50,093 bases of DNA from Anaerolineaceae bacterium (GCA_036567625.1 DATCUC010000264.1:1-50093), one strand, 5' to 3'. Shown: positions 24,667 to 44,437, counted from the first letter of the stretch. Notes: a model not told the origin generated them from the letters alone. Program-made: numbers and translations.

Positions 24667-26013
24667 ATGCTGATTACGAACGGCAAGATCGTCACCTGGG
24701 GGCAGCCGAACCAGATATTGGAAGGCCAGGCTATATATATTCAGGATAACCGCATCGCTGAGATTGGCGCGCAGGCGGAAATGCTGGAGCGCTACCCGCA
24801 AGAGGAGCGCTGTGATGCGCATAGCCAATATGTGCTGCCGGGGAATATTTGCGCGCATACCCACTTTTACGGAGCATTCTCGCGCGGCATGGGCATCCCC
24901 GGCCCGGCGGCAAAAGATTTTCCGGAAATCCTAGCCAGGCTGTGGTGGCCGCTGGACAAATCGCTTTGCATGGATGATGTGCGCTACTCAGCGCTGGTGT
25001 GCATGGTGGACGCAGTGAAGCATGGAACCACTACTCTTATCGATCATCACGCGTCGCCTTCGGCGATCACCGGCTCGCTGGATGCGATTGCCGAGGCAGT
25101 GGAATTGGCCGGGGTGCGAGCATCCTTATGTTATGAAGTCACCGACCGCAACGGCATGGATGGGGCAGAGGAAGGCATCCGCGAGAATGTGCGCTTTATC
25201 GAACGCGTGCAGCGTGAGCGGCCGGCCGATGGGCGCCTGGCTGCCATGTTTGGCCTGCATGCCGGCCTGACGGTGTCGGACGAAACCCTGGCCGCCAGCC
25301 GGGATGCCGTCGCTGGCCGGGCAGGGTTCCACATTCATGTGGCAGAGCACCCGGTCGATGAGTATGACAGCCTGGAAAAGAGCGGCCTGCGCGTGGTTGA
25401 TCGTCTGCAAAAGTTCGACATCCTCGGGCCGCGGTCAATTGTGGTGCATGCTGTACACGTGGATGCGCGCGAAATTGCGATCCTGGCTGAAACGCAAACA
25501 TGGGTCACGCACCAGCCGCGCTCGAATATGAATAATGCCGTCGGTCTGCCCGCCGTGGAAGATATGTTGCGCTCGGGCGTGCGCGTTTGCCTGGGGAATG
25601 ACGGTTTTGCCAACGCGATGTGGGAAGAATGGAAAGCGGCCTATCTGGCGCACAAGCTGCTGCATCGTGATCCGCGGCGCATGAACGGCAGTACGCTGGC
25701 GCAAATGGCGGTGTACAACAACGCCGCGCTGGCCGAAGCGATGTTTGGCGCTGGACCGGTCGGCGTAATCCAGCCCGGCGCGCTGGCCGACCTGATTTTT
25801 GTCGACTACCATCCCTTCACCGAACTTTCCAGCGGGAATTTACCCTGGCAGATCCTGTTTGGTTTCCACGAGAGTATGATTACCGCCACGATTGTCGACG
25901 GGCGGGTGTTGATGTATAACCGCGCGCTGCTGACATTGGATGAAGAAAAGATCGCCAGTGAAGCGCGTACGTTATCTGCTGGCGTCTGGCAGCGTTATCA
26001 GAAACTGTTCTAA
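24667..26013 (+). CDS. ssnA: SsnA-type amidohydrolase (chlorohydrolase/cytosine-deaminase superfamily)
   Basis: Start at 'MLITNGKIV' with GGAG upstream. 'CAHTHFY', 'LWWPLDKSL', 'TLIDHHASPSAITGSL', 'HIHVAEH' and 'HQPRSNMNNAVG' track E. coli SsnA as I remember it. Confidence 0.75.
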   Translation: MLITNGKIVTWGQPNQILEGQAIYIQDNRIAEIGAQAEMLERYPQEERCDAHSQYVLPGNICAHTHFYGAFSRGMGIPGPAAKDFPEILARLWWPLDKSLCMDDVRYSALVCMVDAVKHGTTTLIDHHASPSAITGSLDAIAEAVELAGVRASLCYEVTDRNGMDGAEEGIRENVRFIERVQRERPADGRLAAMFGLHAGLTVSDETLAASRDAVAGRAGFHIHVAEHPVDEYDSLEKSGLRVVDRLQKFDILGPRSIVVHAVHVDAREIAILAETQTWVTHQPRSNMNNAVGLPAVEDMLRSGVRVCLGNDGFANAMWEEWKAAYLAHKLLHRDPRRMNGSTLAQMAVYNNAALAEAMFGAGPVGVIQPGALADLIFVDYHPFTELSSGNLPWQILFGFHESMITATIVDGRVLMYNRALLTLDEEKIASEARTLSAGVWQRYQKLF

Positions 26014-26028
26014 TCCACCGGAGGAAAT

Positions 26029-26712
26029 GTGAGCGACACGCAACCTGTGCAACCCCGAACCATCGCCATTATTGGCGGAACCGGTAAAGAAGGCAAAGGG
26101 CTGGCTTACCGCTGGTGTAAGGCCGGCTACAAGGTAATTATTGGCTCGCGCCAGGCGGAGAAAGCTCAGGCCGCGGTAGAAGAAGTGCTGGCGCTGACCC
26201 CCAACGCCGACCTGCATGGAATGACGAATCCTGAAGCCGCCGCCCAGGCCGATCTGGTGGTGCTAACCGTGCCCTTCGCCGTTCACTGCGACATGCTCAA
26301 CCTGCTCAAGCCGCAGTTGGCCGGGAAAATCCTGGTCGATGTGACCGTGCCGCTGGTGCCTCCTAAGGTAACCCGGGTGCAAATGCCGCCGGAGGGCAGC
26401 GCGGCGCAGCAGGCGCAGGCCATTCTGGGCGAAGAGACCCAGGTAGTAGCTGCCTTCCAGAATATTTCGTATGAGAAACTGTTGAATGATGAAGACATCG
26501 AGTGCGACGTACTGGTGTGCGGCAGCGGGAAGGCTGCGCGCGCGGCGGTCATTGGGCTGGTGCAGGATGCCGGGATGGTGGGCTGGGATGCTGGCCCGCT
26601 GGAGAACTCGGTGGTGGTAGAAGGGATGACCTCGGTGCTGATCGGCCTCAATAAGCAATATGGGGTACAATCAGCGGGAATTCGCATTACCGGTTTGCCG
26701 CGTCCGAACTAA
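26029..26712 (+). CDS. npdG: NADPH-dependent F420 reductase
   Basis: 227 aa. The Rossmann start 'IAIIGGTGKEGKGLAYRWCKAGYKVIIGSR' and the overall length match NpdG/Fno. It has a GTG start after GGAGGA. Confidence 0.8.
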   Translation: MSDTQPVQPRTIAIIGGTGKEGKGLAYRWCKAGYKVIIGSRQAEKAQAAVEEVLALTPNADLHGMTNPEAAAQADLVVLTVPFAVHCDMLNLLKPQLAGKILVDVTVPLVPPKVTRVQMPPEGSAAQQAQAILGEETQVVAAFQNISYEKLLNDEDIECDVLVCGSGKAARAAVIGLVQDAGMVGWDAGPLENSVVVEGMTSVLIGLNKQYGVQSAGIRITGLPRPN

Positions 26713-26723
26713 GGAGAAGGACT

Positions 26724-27494
26724 TTGCCAGCGCTTACGCTTACACCTGTTCCGGGTATCCCTTTGATCGAGCCTGGCGACGATCTCGCGGCAATCCTATG
26801 GAGCGCGATGCAGCGCGCAGAAGTTGGGCTTGCGGCGGGGGATATTCTCGTCCTGGCGCAGAAGATCGTTTCCAAAGCAGAGGGGCGGCTGGTCAACCTG
26901 ACCGAAGTTGTGCCCGGTGAGCGCGCCATGGAATTGGCCGCGGTCACCGAGAAAGACCCGCGCTTTATGGAACTGGTGCTGCGCGAAAGCCGCGAAGTAC
27001 TGCGCACCCGCTCGGGAACGATCATTGTGGAGCACAAGTGCGGTTTTGTGTGCGCGAATGCCGGGATCGACCATTCTAATGTGCGCGGGTCGTGGGGCAA
27101 CCAGGATGATTGGGTTCTGCTGCTGCCGGATGACCCGGACCAATCCGCGCGAAATTTGCGCGCGCGGTTTGAAGAACTGAGCGGCTTTATGCCGGGCATC
27201 GTCATCATCGATTCGCATGGGCGCGCCTGGCGCATGGGCACGGTCGGCGTAGCCATTGGCGTGGCTGGCTTACCGGGGTTGGTCGATCTGCGCGGGCAGC
27301 CGGATATGTTTGGGTATACGCTGCGCGTCACTATGGTAGCCGCGGCAGATGAACTGGCCGCAGCGGCGTCGCTGGTGATGGGGCAGGCGGATGAGCGTAC
27401 TCCGCTGGTGCACGTGCGCGGCTTTCCTTATCCTTTGCGGGAAAGCAGCCTTTCAGAACTGATCCGTCCGAAGGAAATGGACCTGTTTCGCTAA
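26724..27494 (+). CDS. cofE: Coenzyme F420-0:L-glutamate ligase, stand-alone CofE (no nitroreductase domain)
   Basis: 256 aa with a TTG start 7 nt after AAGGAG. CofE blocks are 'ILVLAQKIVSKAEGR', 'ANAGIDHSN', 'IIDSHGRAWRMG' and 'AAADELAAAASLVMGQ'. Confidence 0.85.
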   Translation: MPALTLTPVPGIPLIEPGDDLAAILWSAMQRAEVGLAAGDILVLAQKIVSKAEGRLVNLTEVVPGERAMELAAVTEKDPRFMELVLRESREVLRTRSGTIIVEHKCGFVCANAGIDHSNVRGSWGNQDDWVLLLPDDPDQSARNLRARFEELSGFMPGIVIIDSHGRAWRMGTVGVAIGVAGLPGLVDLRGQPDMFGYTLRVTMVAAADELAAAASLVMGQADERTPLVHVRGFPYPLRESSLSELIRPKEMDLFR

Positions 27495-27508
27495 CCCTGG
27501 AGGGGCGT

Positions 27509-28048
27509 ATGTATGTGGTCGCATCGCTTTTGAATCCAACCGCTACACTGCGGACGCAAGAGCTCTGGCAGTGGTTGGAAAGAAACTGCGGCCTGTCCGG
27601 GATCAAATTGACCCCTTTGCCGCATTTTTCCTGGCAGGCAGCCGGTCAGTACGATCTGGAAGGCGTTGAGACCGCGCTGCGCGACCTGGCTGGACGGACA
27701 AAACCGTTTAACGCGCATACCTCCGGGCTGGGGATCTTCACCGGCGATAACCCGGTGCTGTACACCCCTCTGGTGAAGACGCGCCGGTTGATGGAGCTTC
27801 AGGAAGAAATCTGGCAGGTCACGCATGCGCACGCCGCTCACTTGAATGCCTATTACGAAACCGAATCATGGATGCCGCATGTCACGCTGGCTTACCGCGA
27901 TGTGACCCGTGAAAACCTGGCCTGCGCCATGCAAGAGCTGGCCTTTCGCGAAATAAAAATGGATATCCGCGTCGATCACCTGGCGTTGATTTACGAATTG
28001 GATGGGCAAATCGGGATCAAGTTCCGATACGATTTTCTGGAGAATTAA
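27509..28048 (+). CDS. 2H phosphoesterase superfamily protein (2'-5' RNA ligase/LigT-like)
   Basis: 179 aa with the two spaced H-x-T/S motifs 'PHFSW' and 'PHVTLAY' that define the 2H fold. Confidence 0.65.
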   Translation: MYVVASLLNPTATLRTQELWQWLERNCGLSGIKLTPLPHFSWQAAGQYDLEGVETALRDLAGRTKPFNAHTSGLGIFTGDNPVLYTPLVKTRRLMELQEEIWQVTHAHAAHLNAYYETESWMPHVTLAYRDVTRENLACAMQELAFREIKMDIRVDHLALIYELDGQIGIKFRYDFLEN

Positions 28049-28063
28049 ACAAAGGAGCTGCCG

Positions 28064-28459
28064 ATGGTTGAGATACCTGCTTCACACGCAGACTTACTTT
28101 CGGATGATGTGAAAAGTTTTGCATTCCTGGCGACGATCATGCGCTCGGGGAAACCGCAGGTCACGCCGGTGTGGTTCAATTACCGGGATGGGTATATTTA
28201 TATCAATACCGCTGAGGGCCGCGCGAAGGAGCGCAATATGCAGCAGCGCCCGCAGGTGGCGATTGTCATTCCCGACCCGGAGAATATGTACCGGTACATT
28301 GAGTTTCGCGGGCATGTTGTGGATGGAACCATTGAAGGCGCGGATGAGCATATCCACTTTTTGTCGCTCAAATACCGCGGAACGCGTTACACCATTCCGG
28401 CCGGGCAGGTGCGGGTGATGTACCGGATTGAGCCCGACAGCGTAACGGTGAAAGACTGA
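28064..28459 (+). CDS. PPOX-class (pyridoxamine-5'-phosphate-oxidase-like) FMN/F420-binding split-barrel protein
   Basis: 131 aa. 'FAFLATIMRSGKPQVTPVWFNYRDGYIYINTAEGRAKERNM' is typical of PPOX/FDOR-family proteins. Confidence 0.7.
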   Translation: MVEIPASHADLLSDDVKSFAFLATIMRSGKPQVTPVWFNYRDGYIYINTAEGRAKERNMQQRPQVAIVIPDPENMYRYIEFRGHVVDGTIEGADEHIHFLSLKYRGTRYTIPAGQVRVMYRIEPDSVTVKD

Positions 28460-28496: not shown

Positions 28497-29426
28497 ATGA
28501 AAATCACAGCTCTGGCGGGTGGGGTGGGCGGCGCGAAACTGGCCGACGGACTGGCGCGCTGCCTGGCCCCGGGTGATCTGACGATCATCGTCAACACGGG
28601 CGATGATTTTGAGCATTTTGGTCTGCGCATCAGCCCGGACCTCGATACGGTTTGTTATACGCTGGCCGGGATTGCCAACCCGCAGACCGGATGGGGGCGG
28701 CAGGGCGAGACATGGACGGCGATGGAGAGTTTACGCCGCCTGGGCGCCCCGGATTGGTTCAACCTGGGCGATGGCGACCTGGCTACCCACCTCGAACGCA
28801 CGCGGCGGCTGCGGGCCGGTGAGAGCCTCTCGCAGGTAACGGCGGCATTCTGCCGGGCGTGGGGCATCCCTCAGCTTGTGCTGCCGATGAGCGACCAGCC
28901 GGTTGAAACTTTTGTGGAAACCCGCGATGAAGGCAGCCTCGCGTTCCAGGAGTATTTCGTTCACCGGCGCTGCGAGCCAGAAGTGACCGGGTTTCGCTTT
29001 GTTGGGATTGAAGCCGCCCAGCCTGCGCCAGGCGTACTGGAAAGTATCCGGGCGGCAGACGCGGTGGTCATCTGCCCGTCCAACCCCTGGGTCAGCATTG
29101 GCCCAATCACTGCTCTGAATGGGGTAGAGCAGGCGCTGCGGGAAAAATTCACCCTGGCGGTCTCGCCGCTGATCGGCGGGCAGGCGGTCAAAGGTCCGGC
29201 GGCGAAAATGTACCGCGACCTGGGGATTCAACCCACGGCAAAAGCCGTGGCAAACAGTTACCGCGGCTTTGTAAGTGCTTTCATGATCGACCGCGTTGAC
29301 CATGCTGAAGCAGAAGAAATCCAACGATGGGGTATAATGACAGTAACCACGGATATCATCATGTCCAGCCCAGAAGACCGACGGCGCCTTGGGAGAGAGG
29401 TTCTTGCCATTTGTGAACAGCACTAG
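28497..29426 (+). CDS. cofD: 2-phospho-L-lactate transferase (FO phosphotransferase)
   Basis: 309 aa. 'KITALAGGVGGAKL', 'IIVNTGDDFEHFGLRISPDLDTVCYTLAG', 'LPMSD', 'ICPSNPWVSIGPI' and 'AVSPLIGGQAVKGPAAKM' align block by block with archaeal CofD. Confidence 0.9.
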   Translation: MKITALAGGVGGAKLADGLARCLAPGDLTIIVNTGDDFEHFGLRISPDLDTVCYTLAGIANPQTGWGRQGETWTAMESLRRLGAPDWFNLGDGDLATHLERTRRLRAGESLSQVTAAFCRAWGIPQLVLPMSDQPVETFVETRDEGSLAFQEYFVHRRCEPEVTGFRFVGIEAAQPAPGVLESIRAADAVVICPSNPWVSIGPITALNGVEQALREKFTLAVSPLIGGQAVKGPAAKMYRDLGIQPTAKAVANSYRGFVSAFMIDRVDHAEAEEIQRWGIMTVTTDIIMSSPEDRRRLGREVLAICEQH

Positions 29427-29441: not shown

Positions 29442-30056
29442 ATGAGCTTGTGGGCGATCATCCCCGTCAAGCCATTAAGAAGAGGCAAGTCCCGCCTCTC
29501 GGGAGTATTGTCTGAGGATGAGCGGGCGTTGCTGAATTATACGATGTTATCCAATACCTTAAAAACATTAGCGGAAGTACCTGAGATCAGTGAGCGGTTA
29601 GTCGTCAGCCGGGACCCGGCGGCGCTGGCGCTGGCACGCGAGTACGGCGCACGCACACTGCAAGAGGATGGCAACCCTGGGTTGAATACCGCGCTTCGGC
29701 GGGCCACGGTGGTGGCACAAGTGTATTCCGCCAGCGGCATATTGATTATGCCTGCCGATCTGCCGCTGCTTTCGCAGTCAGACGTCAGGGAGTTGATCTC
29801 ATATACCGATAAGCCGCCGGTAGTGGTCATTGCTCCTGACCGGCGCAGAGATGGCACGAATGCACTGTTGACCACTCCGGCCGGGCTGATCGAGTATCAT
29901 TTTGGGCCCGGTTCGTTTCAAAAACATGTCCAGCTCGCCGAGCGGCAGAATGTGCGCGTTGAAGTTTGTTCTCTTTCAACGCTGGGGCTGGACCTGGATT
30001 ACCCGGAAGACCTTGAATTGCTGCGCCAAATGAAAGCATTACAGGTAGATATTTAG
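29442..30056 (+). CDS. cofC: CofC/FbiD-type guanylyltransferase (2-phospho-L-lactate / PEP guanylyltransferase)
   Basis: 204 aa. 'WAIIPVKPLRRGKSRL', 'PADLPLL' and 'DRRRDGTNAL...LDLDYPEDL' are CofC family blocks. Confidence 0.8.
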   Translation: MSLWAIIPVKPLRRGKSRLSGVLSEDERALLNYTMLSNTLKTLAEVPEISERLVVSRDPAALALAREYGARTLQEDGNPGLNTALRRATVVAQVYSASGILIMPADLPLLSQSDVRELISYTDKPPVVVIAPDRRRDGTNALLTTPAGLIEYHFGPGSFQKHVQLAERQNVRVEVCSLSTLGLDLDYPEDLELLRQMKALQVDI

Positions 30057-30092: not shown

Positions 30093-31091
<999 letters not shown>

Positions 31092-31095: not shown

Positions 31096-31557
31096 ATGAA
31101 AAAGCAAGCCAGCGCCCAGCAGTGCTTTGTGTGCGGCGTCCATAACCCGTTTGGCCTGCACCTCGCGTTTTACGAGGGCGAACCGGGAGAAACGACTGCC
31201 GAAGTGACCATCCCCGAGCAGTACCAGGGGTATCCGGGGGTAGTGCACGGCGGAATCGTTGCGGCCATGCTGGACGAGGTATCTGCGCGGGCTATGCTGG
31301 GCGACGGCGCGCCGCGCTTTATGGTTACAGTAAAAATGTCAGTGCGGTATCGCCGGCCGGTACCGGTAGGCAAGCGCCTGATCATAAAAGGCCATGCCGG
31401 GCAGGTGAAGGGCAGCGTGGCCTACGTAACCGGCGAAATTACTGCGGAAGACGGCTCAATCCTGGCGGAGGTCGAATCGGTACTGGCCGATATTCCGCCA
31501 GAATTGAGGCAAGCTGAGCAAATGGATGGGGACGCCTGGAAGGTGTACCCGGATTGA
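31096..31557 (+). CDS. PaaI-type hotdog-fold thioesterase
   Basis: Start at 'MKKQASAQQCFVCGVHNPFGLHLAF', 4 nt after the LLM stop. 'GYPGVVHGGIVAAMLDE' is the hotdog active-site helix block. Confidence 0.7.
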   Translation: MKKQASAQQCFVCGVHNPFGLHLAFYEGEPGETTAEVTIPEQYQGYPGVVHGGIVAAMLDEVSARAMLGDGAPRFMVTVKMSVRYRRPVPVGKRLIIKGHAGQVKGSVAYVTGEITAEDGSILAEVESVLADIPPELRQAEQMDGDAWKVYPD

Positions 31558-31568
31558 GGAGAAACCCG

Positions 31569-32333
31569 ATGATCGTCGCGTATCACCGACCTACAACCCT
31601 TCAAGAAGCATTGGATCTGCTGGCGCGCAGCGAACCGGTCACGGTTCCGTTGGGCGGCGGTACGATTCTCAGCCGCCCAGGCGCGGGAAAATTCGCCGTG
31701 GTTGATCTGCAGGCGCTAGGCCTGAACCAGATCGAACGCCAGGGCGATCAGCTTATGATTGGCGCGACCGCGACCCTGCAAAGCCTGTATGCACATGCAG
31801 CAATTCCCGCCGGGCTGCGCGCGGCGATCGAGCGCGAAACCACCTACAATCTACGCCAGACAGCCAGCGTGGGCGGGGCAATCGTTTCCGCGGACGGCCG
31901 CAGCCCGTTTGCCGCCGCTCTGCTGGCTCTCAGCGCAGTGCTGAAATGGGCCGACGGCACAAGCACCAGCCTGGAGGAATACTTCGCGGCCCGAAAAAGC
32001 GCTGTTCGCGGCCTGATTTTGCGTGTAGCCATTCCTGCTGCATCAAGAATCGCGTTCGAAACCATCTCAAAGACCCCGGCAGATTTTCCGATCCTGATGG
32101 GGGCAGCAGGGTGGGGCGAGAATGGGCTCGAGCGCCTGGTGTTGGGCGGCGCGGGTGATGCTCCCGTAGCGATAGCCTGGTCAATAAACCGCGAAGGAGA
32201 GCAGATGACCGCCGAACTCATTGAAAAGTATATGCAAAATGCGTATAGCCAATATAGTAATCAGGTTTTTGAAAATCTTGATTACATAAAAACAACCAGC
32301 GCGCTTCTCTTGCGGCGCTTGAGCAGTGGGTGA
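31569..32333 (+). CDS. Molybdenum hydroxylase FAD-binding subunit (YgfM/CoxM-like)
   Basis: Start at 'MIVAYHRPTTLQEALDLL' with GAGGAG 7 nt upstream. 'PLGGGTIL' is the FAD-binding PCMH block. The size is close to the E. coli YgfM size as I remember it. Confidence 0.8.
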   Translation: MIVAYHRPTTLQEALDLLARSEPVTVPLGGGTILSRPGAGKFAVVDLQALGLNQIERQGDQLMIGATATLQSLYAHAAIPAGLRAAIERETTYNLRQTASVGGAIVSADGRSPFAAALLALSAVLKWADGTSTSLEEYFAARKSAVRGLILRVAIPAASRIAFETISKTPADFPILMGAAGWGENGLERLVLGGAGDAPVAIAWSINREGEQMTAELIEKYMQNAYSQYSNQVFENLDYIKTTSALLLRRLSSG

Positions 32334-32349
32334 GATACAGGTGACAATT

Positions 32350-35300: not shown

Positions 35301-35385
35301 CAATCCCACCACGCCGCAGCGCGTTTGGGAAGCGCTGCGTTTGGGCAACCCGGCTGGTTTTACCCGCGTCGAAAAGCGCGTTTGA
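32350..35385 (+). CDS. Fused [2Fe-2S] / molybdopterin-binding hydroxylase subunit (XdhD-like, xanthine dehydrogenase family)
   Basis: N-terminal ferredoxin clusters are 'CQQGECGACAV', 'NSC', 'QCGYCTP' and 'CRCTGY'. Next come the aldehyde oxidase/XDH hammerhead and Mo-binding domains ('RIGGGFGGK', 'GAFRGYG'). A C-terminal catalytic-Glu block 'VKAVAEIPM' follows. This is the same fusion as E. coli XdhD. Confidence 0.85.
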   Translation: MDITLSINGIARQYSIAPSDTLLSVLRRSGFFGVKFGGCQQGECGACAVLLDGRPVNSCSMLAAQAEGHRIETIEGIGEHPEQGWKKTGGLHPIQQAFIESGAVQCGYCTPAMVLAAKSLLEREPNPTEDQVREVLSGVLCRCTGYLKPVQAVLRAAAVMRGEAVPPIDGAFPAPEGLFGDTGKPGESPLGPDASPESATLTRVMPRISVAPQTENWKQVGKPERKVDAVKLVQGKPAFTADVDIRGMLVAKVLHSPVAHARIRRIDTSQAKALKGVAAVLTYLDIPRVVYSTAGQSDPIPGPLDSFSLDNKVRFVGDRVAFVAAETEEIAYQALKLIEVEYEELPAILDPADAMKPGATQIHDEPEYVNFADSNPAKNLAAELRIDIGDVEKGFAEADFIFEGDYEVPKVQQAHIEPHVVVTYWDEDDRLVIRTSTQVPFHTRRVLAPVLGLPMKRIRVIKPRIGGGFGGKQEILMEDVAAHLTIATRRPVIYEYTRAEEFEAARSRHPMRVHMKTGVKRDGTITANEMYALSDTGAYGCHALTVTGNTGHKSMGLYVGDGPYRTSPNIRFYADVVYTNTPPSGAFRGYGVPQGYWPLDRHMEKIARALGLDSLDFRLKNTIRPGEYHPFSTAWSEGREPRPEIVHTVGLEQCVQQGKAAAGWDQKYNNPEWRMVPGKPNLRRGIGVAMVMQGTAIPYLDMGGASIKMNDDGSFNLLVGATDLGTGSDTVLGQMAAEVLGIPLDDLIVYSSDTDFTPFDKGAYASSTTYISGTAVVLAAQKVAERIRVRAAQMINAQGGSEVQPDEIELAHRKAIAPDGRSVTLFEVGHETLHHADQEQIMGVASYVSPASPPPFAAQFAEVTVDIETGQVTVEKLVMAVDGGVIVNPILASGQVEGGMTQALGYAVCEEMRYDDKGRALEKDLVDYHIFRANEMPELETLFVETYEPTHPFGVKAVAEIPMDGVAPAVGNAILDACGAQVDVNPTTPQRVWEALRLGNPAGFTRVEKRV

Positions 35386-36770: not shown

Positions 36771-37571
36771 ATGACAGACGTTTCCATCATTCGCACCCTG
36801 GCAGAACTGGAAGCGAACGGCCAGGCGGGCGTGCTGTGCACGATCATCGAAACCAGGGGTTCCACGCCGCGCCACCAGGGCAGCAAGATGCTGGTCTTTG
36901 CGGACGGCAGTTTTATCGGCACGGTTGGCGGCGGAGAGGTTGAAAACCGTGTACATCGCGAGGCAATGCAAGCCCTGCGCGATGGAAAATCGCGCGTGCT
37001 CCGGTATAATATGGTGGATCCCCAGAAGGGCGACCCCGGTGTGTGCGGCGGCACGTTGGAGGTTTATGTGGAACCGTATCTACCCCAACCATTGCTGGTC
37101 GTAATCGGCGGCGGGCACGTTGGCAAGGCCGTGGTTCACCTGGCGCACTGGCTGGGATTTCGCGTGGCAGTTGTTGATGACCGGGTGGAATTCTGCAATA
37201 AAGAAGCCAACCCGGATGCTGATCTGTTTTACCCGGTGACAATGGCTGAACTGCCGGAGCACCTGCAGATTACACCGTACACCTACCTGGTGCTTACTAC
37301 TCGCGGTTCCGCGGTAGATATCGACGGACTGCCTGCGCTGCTGAATACACCGGCAGCGTATATTGGAGTCATCGGGTCAAAACGGCGCTGGCTGACGACG
37401 CGCAATGCGCTGCGCGACAATGGAATTTCCGAAGAAGCGCTGGCGCGCGTGGTTTCCCCCATGGGATTAGAGTTAAATGCCGAAACCCCGGAAGAGATCG
37501 CGGTGAGTATCCTCTCTGAGATCATCATGCAGCGCAATGCCGGGTCTGGAAAACGCATGGACATCGATTAA
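36771..37571 (+). CDS. xdhC: XdhC/CoxI family molybdenum hydroxylase maturation protein
   Basis: 266 aa. 'GVLCTIIETRGSTPRHQGSKMLV...GTVGGGEVE' and the Rossmann-like 'LLVVIGGGHVGKA' match XdhC. Confidence 0.85.
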   Translation: MTDVSIIRTLAELEANGQAGVLCTIIETRGSTPRHQGSKMLVFADGSFIGTVGGGEVENRVHREAMQALRDGKSRVLRYNMVDPQKGDPGVCGGTLEVYVEPYLPQPLLVVIGGGHVGKAVVHLAHWLGFRVAVVDDRVEFCNKEANPDADLFYPVTMAELPEHLQITPYTYLVLTTRGSAVDIDGLPALLNTPAAYIGVIGSKRRWLTTRNALRDNGISEEALARVVSPMGLELNAETPEEIAVSILSEIIMQRNAGSGKRMDID

Positions 37572-37588: not shown

Positions 37589-39004
37589 ATGTGGCAAGTT
37601 TGTATCAGCGCAACGAGCATTGAAGAAACCGTTCAGGCGCTGGCGGATACCGCGCAAGGCGCGCGGATTATCGCCGGCGGAACTGATCTGATCCTGGAGA
37701 TGGAACGCGGAACGCGCAAAGGCGTGCAAACCATTATCGATATCACCCGTGTCCCCGGCCTGGATCAGATTTGCATGGATGAAGATGGCGCGCTGCACCT
37801 CGGCCCCCTGGTGACGCACAATCACTGCGTGCAATCGCTGTTGGTGCGCGACCGTGCTTTTCCCCTGGCTAAAGCCGCCTGGGAAGTTGGTTCGCCGCAG
37901 ATCCGTAACCGCGGCACGGTGGCCGGCAACCTGATCACCGCATCACCGGCAAATGATACGATCCCGCCGCTGATGGCGCTGGGAGCGCTGCTGACGCTGC
38001 GCTCGGTACGGGGTGATCGCACGGTGCCGATCAGCGAGTTTTACACCGGTGTGCGGCGCACGGTGATGCTGCCGGATGAGATTCTGGTGGATATTTGTAT
38101 CCCCGGGGCAAAAATGCCCCGGCGGGGAACGTTTATCAAATTTGCGCTGCGCCGCGCGCAGGCAATCTCGGTGGTAAACACGGCGGTGGTGCTCACCCTG
38201 GATGGCGCAATGGTGCATTCTGCGGCTATCACTCTCGGCGCGGTTGCCCCGGTGATTATCCATGCCGAAGAAGCCGAAGCGTACCTTGCGGGGAAAACCC
38301 TGACTCCGGATGTGATTGACCAGGCAGCGGAACTGGCCGCCAAAGCCGCCCGGCCGATTGACGACGTGCGCGGCAGCGCGGTGTACCGCCGCGCGATGGT
38401 GCGTGTCATCGTCAAACGCGCCCTGGCCGCGCTGGCCGACGGCACAGAATGCGCCGGTTACCCGACCGAGCCAGTGCTGTTGTGGGGCGACGATTACAAC
38501 GAGCCATCCTACCTGCCAGGAATGCTGCGTCACACGGCGGCAGACCCCATTGTCACGCGGATTAACGGGAAAGAATACGTTTTTACCACCGGGCAGAATA
38601 AAACCCTGCTGCGGCTGCTGCGCGAAGAGGCCGGGCTGGTCGGCACCAAGGAAGGCTGCGCCGAAGGTGAATGCGGCGCTTGCACCGTCTTCCTCGACGG
38701 CGTGGCCGTGATGAGCTGCATGGTTCCCGCGCCGCGTGCGCATGGCGCGGATATCACCACGGTGGAAGGCTTGACCGTCAATGAACAACTTCACCCCGTT
38801 CAAGAAGCCTTCATCGAAGAAGGCGCGGTGCAGTGCGGCTACTGCACGCCGGGCTTCTTGATGTCCGCGGCCAAGCTGCTCGAAGAAAAGCCGCATCCCA
38901 CGAAAGAGGATATCCAGCAATCCCTGACCGGAAATTTATGCCGCTGCACCGGGTATTATAAGATCATCCAGGCAGTGGAACGCGCTGCGGAGAAAGGACA
39001 ATAA
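37589..39004 (+). CDS. Fused FAD-binding / [2Fe-2S] subunit of a second molybdenum hydroxylase
   Basis: The N-terminal CoxM-like FAD domain carries 'IIAGGTDL', 'NRGTVAGNL' and 'DDVRGSAVYRR'. The C-terminal ferredoxin module carries 'CAEGECGACTV', 'MSC', 'QCGYCTPG' and 'CRCTGY'. Confidence 0.85.
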   Translation: MWQVCISATSIEETVQALADTAQGARIIAGGTDLILEMERGTRKGVQTIIDITRVPGLDQICMDEDGALHLGPLVTHNHCVQSLLVRDRAFPLAKAAWEVGSPQIRNRGTVAGNLITASPANDTIPPLMALGALLTLRSVRGDRTVPISEFYTGVRRTVMLPDEILVDICIPGAKMPRRGTFIKFALRRAQAISVVNTAVVLTLDGAMVHSAAITLGAVAPVIIHAEEAEAYLAGKTLTPDVIDQAAELAAKAARPIDDVRGSAVYRRAMVRVIVKRALAALADGTECAGYPTEPVLLWGDDYNEPSYLPGMLRHTAADPIVTRINGKEYVFTTGQNKTLLRLLREEAGLVGTKEGCAEGECGACTVFLDGVAVMSCMVPAPRAHGADITTVEGLTVNEQLHPVQEAFIEEGAVQCGYCTPGFLMSAAKLLEEKPHPTKEDIQQSLTGNLCRCTGYYKIIQAVERAAEKGQ

Positions 39005-39007
39005 AGC

Positions 39008-39376
39008 ATGGGACGCCATTCTCAATATGATTTTCACGAGAAGAAGGTCGATCGCAACGAAATTCATCCCATCTGGCGCATGATCGGCTTTGCGATGATG
39101 CTGTTGATCCCTTTTCTTTCGTATATTGCCGCGATTGGGATTTTGCAGGAGAACGCCAAACAGCGCTGGTTTCCCATTCCGGCAGACTTGCTGGTTCCCT
39201 GGGGTTCCGACTCGATGTTGGGGATCAAGATCTTGCTGACGCTGGTCATCGCTTTTCTGCTGTACATGATTTTTATGTTGATTACTTTCATAATGAACCG
39301 CCTTTTCGCGCCCCCGCGCTATGGGCCAACCGATGTCCCGCAGGTGACGTACCGCGGAAAGAAACGCGTCCGGTAG
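39008..39376 (+). CDS. Small two-TM membrane protein of unknown function, embedded in the hydroxylase operon
   Basis: 122 aa. ATG lies 3 nt after the upstream stop. Two clear hydrophobic helices are present ('IGFAMMLLIPFLSYIAAIGIL', 'ILLTLVIAFLLYMIFMLITFIM'), with a basic C-terminus. No family was recognised. Confidence 0.5.
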   Translation: MGRHSQYDFHEKKVDRNEIHPIWRMIGFAMMLLIPFLSYIAAIGILQENAKQRWFPIPADLLVPWGSDSMLGIKILLTLVIAFLLYMIFMLITFIMNRLFAPPRYGPTDVPQVTYRGKKRVR

Positions 39377-39408: not shown

Positions 39409-41637
39409 ATGGCGTATGTTGGGGAAACGGTTCACCGGATTGACGCTGTTGGTAAAGTGACCGGAGAAGCAGCTTATCCTGGTGATGTGAACCTGCCGGG
39501 CCAGGCGTATATGAAAATCCTGTTTGCGCGCCGCCCGCACGCAATTGTGCGCAGCATTGACACTCGCGCCGCTGAAGCGATGGACGGCGTGCTGGCTGTA
39601 TTCACGGCCAAAGACGTGCCGGTCAATGAATACGGCCTGATTGCGCCCGATCAACCGGTGTTGTGCGGGCCGGGATCGGCCAAACCCTTTGCAGACCGGG
39701 TTCGCTTTGTGGGCGATCAGGTAGCGCTGGTGGTGGCCGAAACCGAAGAAATTGCCAGCCGGGCGCGGGATGCGATTGTTGTCGAGTACGAAGACTTGCC
39801 CCTGGTAGACGATCCGCTCGAAGCCGTGAATGACACCGTCTTACTGCATCCCGATCGCGGCTCTAACGTGTTTGTCAAATACCGCATCCGCAAAGGCGAC
39901 ACGGACGCTGCATTTCAACGCGCGGACGTGATCATCGAAGGCAGCTACCGCACTCCAGTTCAGGAACATGCCTTCTTGCAGCCGGAAGCGGGAGTGGGTT
40001 ATATCGACGAGGAAGGCCGGTTGACGGTAATCGTTGGCGGCCAGTGGGTGCACGAAGACCAGGAACAGATCGCGCATGCGCTGGACCTGCCCAAAGACCA
40101 GGTACGCGTGATCTACCCGGCGATTGGCGGGGCGTTTGGCGGTCGCGAGGATATGTCAGTTCAGATTGTGCTGGGGCTGGCTGCCTGGCGGCTGGCGCAG
40201 CGCGGCATCCACCGCCCGGTGAAGATAATCTGGAGCCGCGAGGAGTCGATGATCGGGCATCACAAGCGCCACGCGTTCTATATTAATACGCGCTGGGGCG
40301 CCACCCGTGATGGCCGGGTGATCGCAGTTGAAGCCGATGTAACCTCCGATGGCGGCGCGTATATTTATACATCCGGTAAAGTTCTCGGCAATGCCACGCT
40401 GCTGGTCACCGGCGCGTACGAGATTGAAAACGTCAAGGTCGACACGCGCTCAGTGTATACCAATCACATTCCCGGCGGCGCTTTCCGCGGGTTTGGCGGG
40501 CCGCAGGCGGCCTTTGCCGCGGAAATGCAGATGAATAAGCTGGCTGAGGCGCTGCACATCGACCCGGTTGAACTGCGGTCACGCAATATCTTCCGCGAGG
40601 GCTCGCTCCTCTCAGTCAACACGCCGCTGCCTGCGGGCGTGAGCATGCCCGAAGTGCTGGAAAAGACCGCCGAAGTTGGCGGCTGGCAGCGCACGCCGGA
40701 TGGCTGGCAGCACCCCAGGGTCAAGCGCGCAGCTGATAGCCCGGCGCACATCCGCCGCGGCAAAGGTGTGGCTATTGGGTTCAAAAATGTGGGCTTCTCC
40801 TTTGGCGCGCCGGAGCACTGCTGGGCGACTGTGGAACTCCACGGCGGAGCCAGGATCGAGCGAGCCGTTCTGCGCCACGCCGGCGCGGAAGTTGGACAGG
40901 GCTCGCATACCGCTTTTGTGCAAATGGCCGCTGAAGCGCTGCAACTGCCTATAGAGCGCATCCAACTGATTGCACAGGATACTGCCTACACCGACAATTC
41001 CGGCAGTGTCTCCGCCTCACGCATGACCTTCATGGCCGGAAACGCCATTCGCGGCGCGGCGCAGGCCGCCCTGGAAAAATGGAACGCCGAAGAGCGTCCA
41101 GCGGTCGCGGCGTACATGTATCGCCCGCCCGCCACCACGGCTCTTGACCCGCAAACTGGCAAGAGCGAGCCAAACTTTGCCTATGGGTACGTGGGGGAAG
41201 TGGCTGAGGTGGAAGTAGACACCGAAACCGGCCAGGTGCGGCTGTTGAACGTGCACTGCGTTGATGACGTGGGCAAGGCAATCAACCCGCAGCAAGTGCA
41301 GGGCCAGGTGGAAGGCGCAGTCGTGCAGGCCGCCGGTTATACTTTGATGGAAGACTTCATCGAAAAAGGTGGGCGCGTGCTGACCCCCTATCTGTCCAAT
41401 TATCTGATCCCCACCGTGCTCGACATCCCCGACAACGTGCAATCGCATTTGCTCGAATATGCCGACCCAATCGGTCCGTGGGGCGCGCGCGGCATGGGCG
41501 AAATGCCCTACCTGCCGCTGGCCGCGGCAATTGCATCCGCAGTGCACGATGCCACCGGCGTATGGATGGATGAATTCCCGCTGACCTCTGAGCGCATGTT
41601 CGCCGCGCTGCAAGCCCAAGCGCAGGATCAACGCTAA
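39409..41637 (+). CDS. Molybdopterin-binding large subunit, xanthine dehydrogenase/aldehyde oxidase family
   Basis: 742 aa with GGAGG upstream. Blocks are 'GKVTGEAAYPGD', 'IGGAFGGRED' and 'GGAFRGFGGPQ', plus the C-terminal catalytic-Glu block 'ARGMGEMPY'. Confidence 0.9.
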   Translation: MAYVGETVHRIDAVGKVTGEAAYPGDVNLPGQAYMKILFARRPHAIVRSIDTRAAEAMDGVLAVFTAKDVPVNEYGLIAPDQPVLCGPGSAKPFADRVRFVGDQVALVVAETEEIASRARDAIVVEYEDLPLVDDPLEAVNDTVLLHPDRGSNVFVKYRIRKGDTDAAFQRADVIIEGSYRTPVQEHAFLQPEAGVGYIDEEGRLTVIVGGQWVHEDQEQIAHALDLPKDQVRVIYPAIGGAFGGREDMSVQIVLGLAAWRLAQRGIHRPVKIIWSREESMIGHHKRHAFYINTRWGATRDGRVIAVEADVTSDGGAYIYTSGKVLGNATLLVTGAYEIENVKVDTRSVYTNHIPGGAFRGFGGPQAAFAAEMQMNKLAEALHIDPVELRSRNIFREGSLLSVNTPLPAGVSMPEVLEKTAEVGGWQRTPDGWQHPRVKRAADSPAHIRRGKGVAIGFKNVGFSFGAPEHCWATVELHGGARIERAVLRHAGAEVGQGSHTAFVQMAAEALQLPIERIQLIAQDTAYTDNSGSVSASRMTFMAGNAIRGAAQAALEKWNAEERPAVAAYMYRPPATTALDPQTGKSEPNFAYGYVGEVAEVEVDTETGQVRLLNVHCVDDVGKAINPQQVQGQVEGAVVQAAGYTLMEDFIEKGGRVLTPYLSNYLIPTVLDIPDNVQSHLLEYADPIGPWGARGMGEMPYLPLAAAIASAVHDATGVWMDEFPLTSERMFAALQAQAQDQR

Positions 41638-41682
41638 GGATCACTTGCGCGGCCAGCCCTTTCGCCGCGATCGATAAGGAAC

Positions 41683-42498
41683 ATGATGGCTCTCCTGGCT
41701 CTTCTACGCGGTGGTGGTGATCTGGCAAGCGGTGTGGCGCTGCGCCTGGCGCGCGCCGGGATCCAGGTCATTGTTGCTGAACTCCCCCGGCCGCTGGCCG
41801 TGCGCCGCCTGGCATCTTTTGCGCAGGCTATTTACGACGGCCAGATCGAAATCGAAGGCATCACCGGACGGCGAGTGGAAGGCCTGGATGGAGTCGGCGC
41901 TGCCCTGGCGCGGGGTCAAGTTCCGGTACTGGTAGACCCAGATGCGGATATTGCGGCTGCACTGCAGTTGGATGTGCTGGTAGATGCGCGCATGACCAAG
42001 CGCCCACCGCAGCCACAGCTTCACCTGGCGCGGTTCGTTGTCGGACTGGGGCCGGGATTTACCGCCGGGGTCGATTGTCACGCAGTGGTGGAAACGCAGC
42101 GCGGGCCGTTTCTCGGGCGGGTGTACTGGCAGGGCAGCGCAGCGGCAGATACCGGCCTGCCGGAAACCGTGCGCGGCCATCAGGGTGACCGCGTGCTGCG
42201 CGCGCCTGTGGCCGGGATGCTGGAGACCCGGGTGATGATTGGCTCGCGGGTGCAGGCCGGTCAGCCGCTGGCGGCGGTCGATGGGCATGTTCTTTCCGCG
42301 CCATTTGACGGCGTGCTGCGCGGGCTGTTACAAAATGGATTGGCAGTCAAACAGGGCGAAAAAATCGGCGACCTGGACCCGCGGGGTGATGAACGTCTGG
42401 TGCGGTTGGCCTCGGATAAGGCCCTGGCCATAGGTGGCGGCGTGCTGGAGGCCGTGCTTTCCCGCCCGGAACTGCGCGCAAAACTGGGAGAGGCGTGA
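41683..42498 (+). CDS. yqeB: YqeB/EF2563-family selenium-dependent molybdenum hydroxylase system protein
   Basis: 271 aa. The N-terminal block 'LLRGGGDLASGVALRLARAGIQVIVAELPRPLAVRR', the following 'VEG' element and the length fit the short YqeB family as I recall it. Its position next to yqeC and mocA matches E. coli. Confidence 0.7.
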   Translation: MMALLALLRGGGDLASGVALRLARAGIQVIVAELPRPLAVRRLASFAQAIYDGQIEIEGITGRRVEGLDGVGAALARGQVPVLVDPDADIAAALQLDVLVDARMTKRPPQPQLHLARFVVGLGPGFTAGVDCHAVVETQRGPFLGRVYWQGSAAADTGLPETVRGHQGDRVLRAPVAGMLETRVMIGSRVQAGQPLAAVDGHVLSAPFDGVLRGLLQNGLAVKQGEKIGDLDPRGDERLVRLASDKALAIGGGVLEAVLSRPELRAKLGEA

Positions 42499-43820
42499 AT
42501 CTGCGAAGCGCGCTGCGCCTGGGCGATGCGCCGCGCCTGGCGCTGACGGGCGCCGGAGGAAAAACCACCGCGCTGTTTCAATTGGCGAGGCAGTTCACCG
42601 GGCCGGTACTGCTGGCTGCCAGCACGCATCTATCGGTGGAACAGGCGCGTCAGGCCGACCGCCATTGGATGGTGGCCGACGCGGGCGAAATCCGCCGCCG
42701 GGAAACCGAACTGCTGCAGCCGGGCAGCACGCTGATCACCGGGCCGGTTGGCGCGGATGAGCGCCATTATGGGGCCAGCCCGGAAGCGCTGGATGCGCTG
42801 TATGCCGCGGCCGAGCGCTACCACCTGCCGCTGATCATCGAGGCAGACGGCTCGCGCCGCCGCCCGGTCAAAGCGCCGGCCGAACACGAGCCGCTTATCC
42901 CGGCCTGGGTTGATATGGTGGCGGTGGTCGCCGGCCTGTCTGCCCTGGGCCAGCCGCTGAATGAGACCTGGGTACACCGCCCAGAGCGTTTTTCCGCGCT
43001 GAGTGAGATAGACGCCGGAAACCCGATCATGGTAGATGGATTGGCGCGGGTGTTGAGCCATGCGCAAGGCGGGTTGAAGGATATTCCTACCAGCGCTCGA
43101 CGCATAGCACTGCTCAACCAGGTGGATACCCCTGCGCTGGAAACTGCCGCGGGTGAACTGGCGGGGTTGCTGCGCGGCGCGTACCATGCGGTCTTATGCG
43201 CCGCGCTGGGTCGTGAAAGCGTTCAGGCCGTTTATGAGCGCGAAGCTGGGGTCGTGCTGGCTGCCGGTCAATCCGCGCGGTTTGGCGCGCCCAAAGTACT
43301 GCTAGAATGGCAGGGCGTTCCGCTGGTACGACGCGCAGCCGAGGTTGCGATCGAGGCCGGCCTGGACCCGGTCATCGTGGTTGTTGGTGAACACGCGGAC
43401 GCAATTCGCGCGGCGCTAGAGGAACTGGCCGTGGATATCGTATCCAACCCGGCCTGGGTTGAAGGCCAGAGTACCTCGTTGCGCGCCGGGCTGAGTGCAG
43501 CCGCAGGCGCGGGCTGCGCAGTTTTTCTGCTGGCCGACCAACCCTACCTGACCGCGGAAACCCTGCTCGCGCTGCTGAGCGCACACCGCGGCAGCCTGGC
43601 CCCGGTGGTTGCTCCGCGAGTTGGCGGGCAGCGCGCTAACCCGGTACTGTTTGATCGAGTCACCTTTGCTGACCTGGGGAGCATTACCGGCGACCGCGGC
43701 GGCCGCGCGGTGATAGAACACTGGCCGGTGCGGTTTGTTGACATGCAGGACGAGCGCTTGCTGGTAGATATTGACACCCCGGAAGATTACCGCCGCCTGT
43801 TGGAAGAGGGATCGCAGTGA
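42495..43820 (+). CDS. Fusion of a YqeC-family accessory protein (N-terminal) with a MocA/MobA-like nucleotidyltransferase (C-terminal)
   Basis: 441 aa, with the GTG start overlapping the yqeB stop (GTGA). The P-loop-like 'LALTGAGGKTTALFQLA' and 'LIIEADGS' mark the YqeC family. From about residue 250, 'GVVLAAGQSARFGAPKVLL', 'LLADQP' and 'DIDTPEDY' mark the MobA-like NTP-transferase fold. Confidence 0.7.
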   Translation: MNLRSALRLGDAPRLALTGAGGKTTALFQLARQFTGPVLLAASTHLSVEQARQADRHWMVADAGEIRRRETELLQPGSTLITGPVGADERHYGASPEALDALYAAAERYHLPLIIEADGSRRRPVKAPAEHEPLIPAWVDMVAVVAGLSALGQPLNETWVHRPERFSALSEIDAGNPIMVDGLARVLSHAQGGLKDIPTSARRIALLNQVDTPALETAAGELAGLLRGAYHAVLCAALGRESVQAVYEREAGVVLAAGQSARFGAPKVLLEWQGVPLVRRAAEVAIEAGLDPVIVVVGEHADAIRAALEELAVDIVSNPAWVEGQSTSLRAGLSAAAGAGCAVFLLADQPYLTAETLLALLSAHRGSLAPVVAPRVGGQRANPVLFDRVTFADLGSITGDRGGRAVIEHWPVRFVDMQDERLLVDIDTPEDYRRLLEEGSQ

Positions 43821-44437
43821 ACCCGGCAGCTCAGTTCCCGCATACTGGCGCGGTGATCCTCGCCGCCGGACAGTCACGGCGCATGGGTACGCCCAAGCTG
43901 GTGCTGCCCTGGGGCAGCGAAACAGTGGTTGGCCGGGTCGTCAGCGTTTTGCAGGCGGCGGGTATCGGTCAGATCGTTGTGGTCACCGGGGCCAACCGCG
44001 TTCAGGTCGAGAGCGCTTTGCAAAGCAAAGCGCTGACCCTGGTGCATAACCCGCAGTACACGCAAAGCGAAATGCTGGCCTCGCTGCAAATTGGGCTGCG
44101 CGCGCTGGATGCAGATATCAACGGCAGCCTGGTGGTTCTGGGCGACCAGCCGCAGATCGAAGCGCCAATTGTGGAAGAGATCGCTCGCCGGGCCGGGGAA
44201 CGCCTGGATGCGCTGATCGTGCCCAGTTATCAAAACCGGCGCGGCCATCCCTGGCTGGCTGGACGGGCATTATGGGAGGGCATCTTTGCGCTGAACGATC
44301 CCCCGCAAACGCTGCGTGATTTCTTGCGTGACCATGCCCGGCAGATTGAATACGTCAACGTGGACAGCCCATCTGTGCTGGCGGATGTAGACACCCCGGA
44401 GGATTATCACCGCCAGCGCCCGCAAAACGGCGCTTAG
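43817..44437 (+). CDS. mocA: Molybdenum cofactor cytidylyltransferase-like protein (MocA/MobA-like NTP transferase)
   Basis: 206 aa with a GTGA overlap with the upstream gene. Blocks are 'GAVILAAGQSRRMGTPKLVLPW', 'VLGDQP', 'RRGHP' and 'DVDTPEDY'. Confidence 0.75.
   Translation: MNPAAQFPHTGAVILAAGQSRRMGTPKLVLPWGSETVVGRVVSVLQAAGIGQIVVVTGANRVQVESALQSKALTLVHNPQYTQSEMLASLQIGLRALDADINGSLVVLGDQPQIEAPIVEEIARRAGERLDALIVPSYQNRRGHPWLAGRALWEGIFALNDPPQTLRDFLRDHARQIEYVNVDSPSVLADVDTPEDYHRQRPQNGA

Follow-up and report, generated by a model that had tools for sequence, protein, structure and literature searches.

Why should the genes that build the tail of coenzyme F420 lie inside an island of molybdenum hydroxylase genes resembling the ssnA and xdhD region of Escherichia coli? 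The question is raised by a metagenomic contig of an Anaerolineaceae bacterium (GCA_036567625.1, DATCUC010000264.1:1-50093), analysed here over its full 50,093 nucleotides and called the window from here on, in which 19 open reading frames (ORFs), all on the + strand, span positions 24667–44437. The array runs from ssnA through npdG, cofE, cofD, cofC and a gene for a luciferase-like protein (LLM) to two molybdenum hydroxylases and the genes for their maturation. In E. coli the order is ygfK-ssnA-ygfM-xdhD, as confirmed in NC_000913.3, and the adjacency of ssnA and ygfM is interrupted here by eight genes, as the first-pass annotation of this DNA had pointed out. We propose that the island probably encodes, in the form found in Anaerolineales, the first steps of purine/urate degradation by the reductive (2,8-dioxopurine) pathway, a reading drawn from its genes and their relatives, in which the LLM would take the place of the reductases YgfK and UacX and would use F420H2.

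That annotation regarded the chemistry and substrates of this trait as unresolved, a view now outdated, as the urate pathway was solved in 2025 by Li et al. (PMC12507026) and by Liu et al. (bioRxiv 10.1101/2025.04.24.650524). According to Li et al., XdhD-YgfM of E. coli reduces urate to 2,8-dioxopurine ("yanthine") with NADH, and YgfK reductively dearomatises this compound, the product being detectable only when SsnA hydrolyses the ring; in C. difficile, UacX, a PydA homologue, replaces YgfK for ring reduction. Liu et al. reached the same pathway, named the enzymes DOPDH and DOPOR (YgfK), and reported that DOPDH and a separate xanthine dehydrogenase (XDH) of Clostridium sporogenes both require SelD. 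The chemistry of XdhD, YgfK and SsnA and the dependence on SelD are established for E. coli and Clostridium only. From a SsnA similarity network, Li et al. also described Chloroflexota clusters with a PF00296 putative F420-dependent reductase in place of YgfK/UacX, a remark that recurs in their Discussion, and proposed different electron donors in different lineages; the available portions of that paper leave the cof and npdG genes unmentioned. The link to F420, of which the first-pass annotation knew no description, had already been predicted in print, and since the basic idea stands in one sentence of the 2025 paper, the present analysis is a confirmation and an extension of it, not a discovery. 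The present analysis adds that the ssnA-npdG-cof-LLM unit is constant in hundreds of species and that, in other lineages, members of the LLM clade are independently encoded among genes of nucleobase catabolism; it also adds the loop of XdhD type, the division of YqeB into two genes, and a variable slot for nitroreductase, 2H and PPOX genes.

The key clue is the absence of YgfK, because SsnA depends on YgfK/UacX as an obligate partner in the pathway as worked out by Li et al. (PMC12507026). With the E. coli protein as query, no YgfK homologue was found in the window or, at E<1e-8, in any of 84 related loci. The absence of UacX from Chloroflexota clusters is taken from the same paper, no UacX query having been run on the window or the loci. 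SsnA itself is present: ssnA (24667–26013) encodes a SsnA-family amidohydrolase 34% identical to E. coli SsnA over its full length and above the cut-offs of both NF005540 (502.7 bits, cut-off 444) and TIGR03314 (461.2, cut-off 455.5), which we predict to be the ring-opening partner of a reductase. Proteins of F420 metabolism are encoded next in the array. NpdG (Fno; 26029–26712; PF03807; TIGR01915 208.4 bits, cut-off 149.8) is an NADPH-dependent F420 reductase with a predicted role in F420H2 recharging. CofE (26724–27494; 256 aa; TIGR01916 278, cut-off 180.65) is the F420-0:gamma-glutamyl ligase, CofD (28497–29426; TIGR01819 325.4, cut-off 257.45) the transferase of 2-phospho-L-lactate (or of enolpyruvyl-diphospho-5'-guanosine, EPPG), and CofC (29442–30056; TIGR03552 165.2, cut-off 105) the guanylyltransferase of tail synthesis. 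A PPOX-class protein is described with the accessory genes below. The LLM gene (30093–31091; PF00296) comes directly after cofC.

How constant is this arrangement? When one genome for each GTDB species was scanned, at least 586 species proved to encode a close relative of the LLM. Gene order was compared in 84 loci, the best 80 (LLM 82–91% identical, mostly with Anaerolineales-type or unclassified Chloroflexota labels) and four further ones, onto which the window proteins were mapped by tblastn; 61 loci have at least 6 kb upstream of the LLM gene, 59 at least 9 kb downstream, and 53 both flanks. All 84 carry some form of the arrangement, among them those of the cultured Anaerolinea thermophila UNI-1 and Bellilinea caldifistulae, so that the gene order does recur in relatives, as the first-pass annotation had said it would have to. 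Ahead of the LLM gene, with strand and order unchanged, we found ssnA in 56 of the 61 loci, npdG in 58, cofE in 58, cofD in 49 and cofC in 59, the last within 1.5 kb of the LLM gene in 75/77 loci. The near-constant unit is thus ssnA-npdG-cofE-(cofD)-cofC-LLM. The molybdenum genes are patchy: a Mo subunit is encoded downstream of the LLM gene in only 33/59 loci and on either flank in 39/53, and 14/61 loci have a different XDH set upstream of ssnA instead. The hydroxylases are thus a variable attachment to the unit. Whether the cof block travels with the hydroxylase genes had been asked in the first-pass annotation; it does so only loosely, and its firm ties are to ssnA and the LLM gene. The earlier idea that the F420 block is functionally linked to the purine-type island and not there by accident is supported.

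Some variation exists within the unit itself. In the cofD-negative loci examined (L008, L012, L014, L020, L040 and L079), cofC follows cofE directly, which shows a true loss of cofD from these clusters, and apparently likewise from the remaining cofD-negative ones (12/61 in all). The slot between cofE and cofD is empty in 15 loci and holds a 2H gene alone in 14, the rest having a stand-alone nitroreductase (PF00881) with or without a PPOX gene. Overall the nitroreductase occurs there in 28/61 clusters (for example 311 aa, L013 7353–8288) and is likely the counterpart of the C-terminal dehydro-F420-0 reductase of FbiB; the 2H gene occurs in 20/61 (it is absent in Bellilinea) and the PPOX gene in 19/61, usually beside the nitroreductase. 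The content of the slot in the window, 2H and PPOX without nitroreductase, is a rare combination. In six variant loci (L055, L064, L069, L071, L076 and L085) a SsnA paralogue (43–47% identical) is encoded directly upstream of the LLM gene, preceded in three of them by a YgfT-like protein (27–29% identical); L085 has both ssnA copies.

Among the proteins of the island, the LLM stands well above all others in conservation. It is 88–95% identical to Anaerolineae proteins, including those of A. thermophila UNI-1 and B. caldifistulae, and 82–91% across Anaerolineales loci, compared with 28–78% for all its neighbours (SsnA 55–71%, CofD 45–66%, FeS-Mo, the fused iron-sulphur and molybdopterin subunit of the first hydroxylase, 66–78%, short FAD subunit 28–49%). 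An exhaustive HMMER search of 1.84 billion representatives placed the next full-length relatives at about 50% identity. Its top NCBIfam matches are all F420-dependent LLM families, the closest solved relatives are Mer proteins (phmmer E 4e-40), and all sequence matches in the PDB are Mer or Fgd. The AlphaFold (AF2) model, with a pLDDT of 90, gave Mer as top Foldseek match (TM 0.88–0.89), followed by Fgd and Adf, and the 29 best PDB structure matches are all F420-dependent LLMs (Mer, Fgd, Fgd2, Adf). Fold and kinship lead us to predict an F420-type hydride transferase, Mer-like but not filed as Mer, since the Mer equivalog models stay below cut-off (NF002619 176.2 < 276; TIGR03555 174.5 < 348.7).

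More distant relatives of the LLM (46–69% identity) were found in six contexts without cof genes, all of them neighbouring nucleobase-catabolism genes. In L090–L092 (metagenomic contigs, 61–63% identical) the LLM gene lies divergently beside two complete XDH-family enzymes, and in L090 an adenine deaminase and a SsnA/GuaD-like amidohydrolase, the latter 30% identical to the SsnA of the window, are encoded after it. In L086 and L087 (Bathyarchaeia, 46%) and in L089 (48%) it lies beside a HyuA-like hydantoinase/dihydropyrimidinase (36–39% to E. coli HyuA), together with genes of the ornithine transcarbamylase (OTCase) family (one 40% to YgeW), CN-hydrolases, class III aminotransferases, a cytidine deaminase and a nucleoside-type ABC transporter. 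This context resembles a cluster for the reductive degradation of pyrimidines or hydantoins and suggests that archaea have an F420-dependent enzyme corresponding to dihydropyrimidine dehydrogenase. The remaining context is L088 (Ardenticatenia, 69%), where an orphan XDH-type FAD subunit is encoded after the LLM. Our literature search found no F420-dependent dihydropyrimidine- or purine-ring reductase described beyond the remark of Li et al. (PMC12507026). Small ThiS-like (PF02597) genes are interleaved with the XDH subunit genes in L090–L092.

The hydroxylases of the window are of two kinds. One has the architecture of XdhD, a fused 2Fe-2S and molybdopterin protein of 1019 aa (FeS-Mo; 32326–35385; Fer2, Fer2_2, Ald_Xan_dh_C and MoCoBD_1/2) with a separate, YgfM-like FAD subunit of 259 aa encoded just upstream (31554–32333; PF00941; 27% identical to E. 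coli YgfM and equal to it in length), as in E. coli. FeS-Mo is 36% identical to E. coli XdhD over 1018 columns and has an 11-residue XdhD-specific insertion with a Glu aligned to XdhD E606, a loop absent from XdhA and from the second Mo subunit; Li et al. (PMC12507026) propose that this E606 orients urate. The other hydroxylase consists of a fused FAD and 2Fe-2S subunit (37589–39004; PF00941, PF03450, Fer2, Fer2_2), with TIGR02963 (xanthine dehydrogenase small subunit) as best NCBIfam match at 324 bits, below its cut-off of 467, and a molybdopterin subunit of 742 aa and canonical XDH type (39409–41637), best matched by PucD at 549.7, below its cut-off of 783.65. The latter has the motif GGAFGGRED, with Glu at the canonical substrate-binding Glu position of XDH, which we take to be E802 of the bovine enzyme, where XdhD, XdhA and FeS-Mo have Gln. 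Because FeS-Mo has the XdhD loop and the second Mo subunit the Glu motif of XDH, the pair would correspond to an XDH and a DOPDH, the combination known from C. sporogenes.

Two markers of the labile-selenium trait, YqeB and YqeC, both above cut-off, are encoded beside the hydroxylases. The yqeB gene (41683–42498; TIGR03309 295.1, cut-off 220) is of the C-terminal-half type, 45% identical to residues 270–524 of E. coli YqeB, and an XdhC-family maturation protein (36771–37571; PF02625, PF13478) is 37% identical to residues 1–259 of the same protein. E. coli YqeB (541 aa; L005 15615–17240) joins an XdhC-like N-terminal half to a YqeB-specific C-terminal half, which in the window are two genes 4 kb apart. 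The yqeC gene (42495–43820; PF19842, PF12804; TIGR03172 159.2, cut-off 73.05) is fused to a MocA cytidylyltransferase domain of MCD (molybdopterin cytosine dinucleotide) type (TIGR03310 148.4 < 186.45), and a second MocA-like nucleotidyltransferase (43817–44437; PF12804; TIGR03310 141.8 < 186.45) is the last gene of the array.

Put together, these genes allow a pathway in which substrates are predicted for every protein of the window. The canonical-type XDH would oxidise hypoxanthine/xanthine to urate, and the XdhD/YgfM-like enzyme (31554–35385) would reduce urate to 2,8-dioxopurine. The LLM would then transfer a hydride from F420H2 to 2,8-dioxopurine, doing the job of YgfK in E. coli or of UacX in C. 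difficile, and SsnA would hydrolyse the reduced ring and so pull the reaction forward. F420H2 would be regenerated from NADPH by NpdG, CofC, CofD and CofE would build the tail of F420 on FO made or acquired elsewhere, and XdhC, YqeB, YqeC-MocA and the second MocA-like protein would serve the maturation of a selenium-dependent Mo-cytosine-dinucleotide cofactor for both hydroxylases. F420 is an obligate hydride carrier with a potential slightly below that of NADPH. The electrons would balance from hypoxanthine, four being released and four consumed, by arithmetic on the published stoichiometry. The chemistry presumed for the LLM has a precedent in the dearomatisation of picrate, which NpdG and an F420H2-dependent hydride transferase bring about together (reviewed in PMC8498797).

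Several observations weigh against this proposal. The models for XdhD (TIGR03313, 681.9 < 1101.9) and YgfM (TIGR03312, 87 < 241.5) score far below their cut-offs. No Mo subunit is encoded in either 10-kb flank of the LLM gene in 14/53 loci. The genes for the later steps are missing as well, as no E. coli-type HyuA, YgeW, YgeX, YgeY or YqeA was found in the window or within 10 kb of the LLM gene in the 84 loci; the adjacent divergent M20 peptidase was considered as a YgeY and ruled out, having no match to E. coli YgeY at E <= 1e-5 and scoring as a generic dipeptidase. The window also has no nitroreductase homologue for the reduction of dehydro-F420-0, which would be needed if the phosphoenolpyruvate (PEP) route were used, and neither the window nor any fetched locus, the 84 loci being covered to 10 kb around the cluster, holds a candidate radical-SAM FO synthase (an ORF of at least 300 aa with CxxxCxxC). 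Finally, the LLM is conserved as strongly as housekeeping proteins or more so, which is unusual for an enzyme presumed to be catabolic and might mean that its function is a more central one.

That last point also speaks for the view that there is no functional link at all, npdG, the cof genes and the LLM gene being a general F420 supply operon with an LLM of central function (a Mer-like methylene-tetrahydrofolate/-pterin reductase or an F420-reducing dehydrogenase) that lies next to purine genes by inherited synteny. The LLM is conserved like a housekeeping enzyme and has Mer as nearest solved relatives, the downstream genes of the urate pathway are not nearby, the 84 full-arrangement loci all come from Anaerolineales-type genomes, and the unrelated upstream genes for PgpH, YqeY, ComEA, DUF1385 and M20 proteins are syntenic in A. 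thermophila and Bellilinea. We nevertheless consider it unlikely. Inherited synteny is no explanation for a clade that meets purine and pyrimidine genes in different arrangements and lineages, as its relatives do in the six cof-free contexts, again beside XDH-family, adenine deaminase, hydantoinase, YgeW-like and CN-hydrolase genes; ssnA stays with the block when the hydroxylase genes move, SsnA paralogues insert beside the LLM gene, and the scores with the Mer models argue in the same direction. A purely biosynthetic LLM, for instance a dehydro-F420-0 reductase needed because CofE (PF01996 only) is single-domain and lacks the C-terminal nitroreductase domain of FbiB, would explain why its gene follows cofC immediately in 75/77 loci and why the window can do without a nitroreductase, and yet the 28/61 loci with a nitroreductase between cofE and cofD retain the LLM, and relatives exist beside purine and pyrimidine genes with no cof genes at all. 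This function is most improbable and we reject it.

The first-pass annotation had favoured F420 as redox partner or co-substrate of the hydroxylases, that is, as the direct electron acceptor or donor of both of them through their FAD subunits in place of NAD(P) or YgfK-type subunits, with the LLM and PPOX proteins as side activities. The position of the genes lends this some appeal, as the YgfM-like FAD gene comes directly after the LLM gene, or with only the hotdog gene between, in 28/59 loci, and the 69%-identical LLM of Ardenticatenia is followed by an orphan FAD subunit; donors that differ between lineages, as proposed in PMC12507026, would also fit. Against it, E. coli XdhD-YgfM works with NADH according to the same source. 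The F420 genes follow ssnA and LLM (56–59/61), while the Mo genes are found downstream in 33/59 loci and on either flank in 39/53, and the reductase step coupled to SsnA would be left unfilled. We know of no FAD_binding_5 subunit that uses F420. With ssnA-npdG-cof-LLM constant and the Mo genes moving or missing, we place F420 on the LLM and SsnA rather than on the hydroxylases; the earlier claim is probably wrong, and the model behind it quite unlikely. Another reading is a pathway of the same design in which the LLM reduces another substrate (e.g., xanthine, uracil/thymine or a hydantoin-type compound) and the route diverges from that of E. coli after the hydroxylase steps. The distant relatives at 46–48%, whose HyuA-like, CN-hydrolase and aminotransferase neighbours resemble reductive pyrimidine degradation, speak for it, as do the hydroxylases of L090–L092, which have no XdhD loop, and the lack of E. 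coli-type downstream genes near the cluster. A SsnA above its equivalog cut-off and the XdhD loop of FeS-Mo fit instead a 2,8-dioxopurine intermediate, and we give this variant only a small chance.

For the source of FO in the proposed urate pathway, an unlinked cofG/cofH or fbiC elsewhere in the genome is the simpler expectation; our literature search gave nothing relevant on FO synthase in Anaerolineae. A bolder scenario, which we consider unlikely, is that Anaerolineales retain no more of F420 metabolism than the half that builds the tail and recharges the cofactor, mainly for one catabolic step, and obtain the FO/F420 head from partner methanogens, so that purine breakdown would depend on a cross-fed archaeal cofactor, with the LLM founding a class of F420H2-dependent nucleobase reductases shared with Bathyarchaeia. 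No match to SelD was found in the 50-kb window or in any fetched locus, and the window contains no transporters; in this, as for YgfK and FO synthase, homology and motif searches agree with the absences listed for the window in the first-pass annotation.

Compared with known systems, the island is closest to the E. coli ygfK-ssnA-ygfM-xdhD / yqeB-yqeC-mocA region, with which it shares a SsnA equivalog, a 259-aa FAD subunit followed by an FeS-Mo protein with the XdhD loop, and YqeB/YqeC/MocA maturation genes. Unlike that region, it has no YgfK, for whose step a Mer-like LLM is the candidate; npdG and cofC/D/E stand between ssnA and the gene for the FAD subunit, YqeB is split in two genes, YqeC is fused to a MocA domain, and no ygeW, ygeX, ygeY, hyuA, yqeA or purine transporters were found nearby. 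The presence of a second, XDH-type hydroxylase is a feature like that of C. sporogenes. With C. difficile and C. sporogenes it would also share two selenium-dependent hydroxylases and the exchange of the dearomatising reductase for one of another family with another presumed electron donor. In contrast to C. difficile, the replacement has the LLM fold and is presumably F420H2-dependent, not an FMN/Fe-S enzyme of PydA type, and the genes for biosynthesis and recycling of the cofactor lie in the cluster. The npd system for picrate and 2,4-dinitrophenol of Rhodococcus and Nocardioides is similar in passing electrons from NADPH to F420H2 through NpdG and then a hydride onto an electron-poor aromatic ring (PMC8498797). 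It differs in its substrate, nitroaromatic vs. oxopurine, and in a cluster without SsnA-type hydrolase, Mo hydroxylases or cof genes. Mer of methanogens (PDB 8QPL, 1Z69), the best sequence and structure match of the LLM, is likewise an F420-dependent TIM-barrel hydride transferase, acting on a reduced pterin-type N-heterocycle, but the LLM has only 24–28% identity to it in the structural alignment, scores below the cut-off of the Mer models, and belongs to a fermentative bacterial host and a purine-catabolism instead of a C1 context.

If the proposal is right, the LLM would join YgfK and UacX as a third way, unrelated to either, of carrying out the hardest reaction in the anaerobic degradation of purines. 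It would also give F420 its first defined physiological role, as far as we know, in the Anaerolineae, which are very abundant in digesters and sediments, and would represent a new functional class of F420 enzymes reaching into archaea. The extended cluster, which joins substrate-level enzymes, cofactor tail synthesis, recharging and, in many loci, Mo/Se cofactor maturation, is a compact test case, and the prediction is directly testable because the cultured A. thermophila UNI-1 and B. caldifistulae share the arrangement.

Four other genes of the array are classed as accessory. Between cofE and cofD lie a 2H phosphoesterase superfamily protein (27509–28048; PF13563 at 5e-15) and a PPOX-class protein (FDOR-B type; 28064–28459; TIGR03618 84.7, cut-off 79.05), a predicted F420-dependent oxidoreductase. 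A hotdog-fold (4HBT) protein of the thioesterase superfamily (31096–31557; PF03061 at 6.7e-15) follows the LLM gene; the part in ring opening suggested for it earlier found no support. A family II inorganic pyrophosphatase with CBS and DHH/DHHA2 domains (35421–36767; PF01368, PF02833, PF00571; NF011443 325 < 335) may pull both kinds of nucleotidyl transfer, those of CofC and MocA. Neither of the latter two genes is peculiar to this contig, as the hotdog gene is found between those of the LLM and the FAD subunit in 17/59 loci and the pyrophosphatase at the same position in 15/59. In total, SsnA, NpdG, CofE, CofD, CofC, the F420 class of PPOX, YqeB and YqeC exceed the curated NCBIfam cut-offs, and the YgfM-type, XdhD-type and both MocA matches fall below them. 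The family names given to 18 of the 19 products in the first-pass annotation agree with our Pfam and NCBIfam searches. The nineteenth, a 122-aa ORF with two hydrophobic segments (39008–39376), has no Pfam match above threshold and no NCBIfam match; its position between the FAD/FeS and Mo genes is kept in A. thermophila (130 aa), Bellilinea (125 aa) and 24/59 loci, and its product might anchor the second hydroxylase in the membrane or associate with it.

The tight packing of the 19 genes reported before is borne out by our ORF map. With starts refined for ssnA (24667), hotdog (31096) and pyrophosphatase (35421), the array is 98.7% coding and its junctions measure, in order, 15, 11, 14, 15, 37, 15, 36, 4, −4, −8, 35, 3, 17, 3, 32, 45, −4 and −4 nt. 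The spacing of 3–45 nt or short overlaps had been described correctly, except that the FAD subunit and FeS-Mo genes overlap by 8 nt, not 4. The hotdog ORF opens at 31048, and the choice of the ATG at 31096 abolishes its overlap. An exact-sequence search with the FAD subunit ORF gave no match, probably because its start is called differently elsewhere. Many of the genes are preceded by GGAGG-like ribosome-binding sites. A consensus scan for terminators gave 24 sites, unenriched against 18.4 ± 4.8 in shuffles, with those on the + strand all within coding sequences and none in a junction, in agreement with the earlier statement that the junctions are free of terminators; for promoters in Chloroflexota such consensus scans carry no positive information. 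A single long transcription unit is plausible, and we infer co-transcription from this layout. An Rfam scan of the window matched only a tRNA (6522–6594, − strand), and even at E <= 1 it revealed no riboswitch, whether for purines, xanthine or anything else, ahead of ssnA.

Downstream, the array ends at a convergent SIR2 gene (44434–45243, − strand). Upstream of ssnA there is a gap of 215 nt and then, between the M20 dipeptidase gene and ssnA, two further + strand genes (21138–24451) for an 848-aa S8 subtilase and a sortase-domain protein. The 19 genes of the array as first delimited are real, and the run of + strand genes begins already at 21138. In A. thermophila and B. caldifistulae the S8/sortase pair is absent at the equivalent position and the divergent M20 dipeptidase gene abuts ssnA, for which reason the pair looks like a local insertion. 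Elsewhere in the window there are three long ORFs without NCBIfam match, which we regard as putative genes: 7054–8658 (− strand, 534 aa), 12575–13702 (− strand, 375 aa, also without Pfam match) and 38–754 (+ strand, 238 aa). Towards the ends of the window (47438–50060 and 1269–3044, both − strand) are possible defence or repair genes, encoding a protein with RNase_H_2 and TPR domains, one with MrfA Zn-binding, HNH and HRQ1 winged-helix domains, and one with PHP and Schlafen/AlbA_2 domains.

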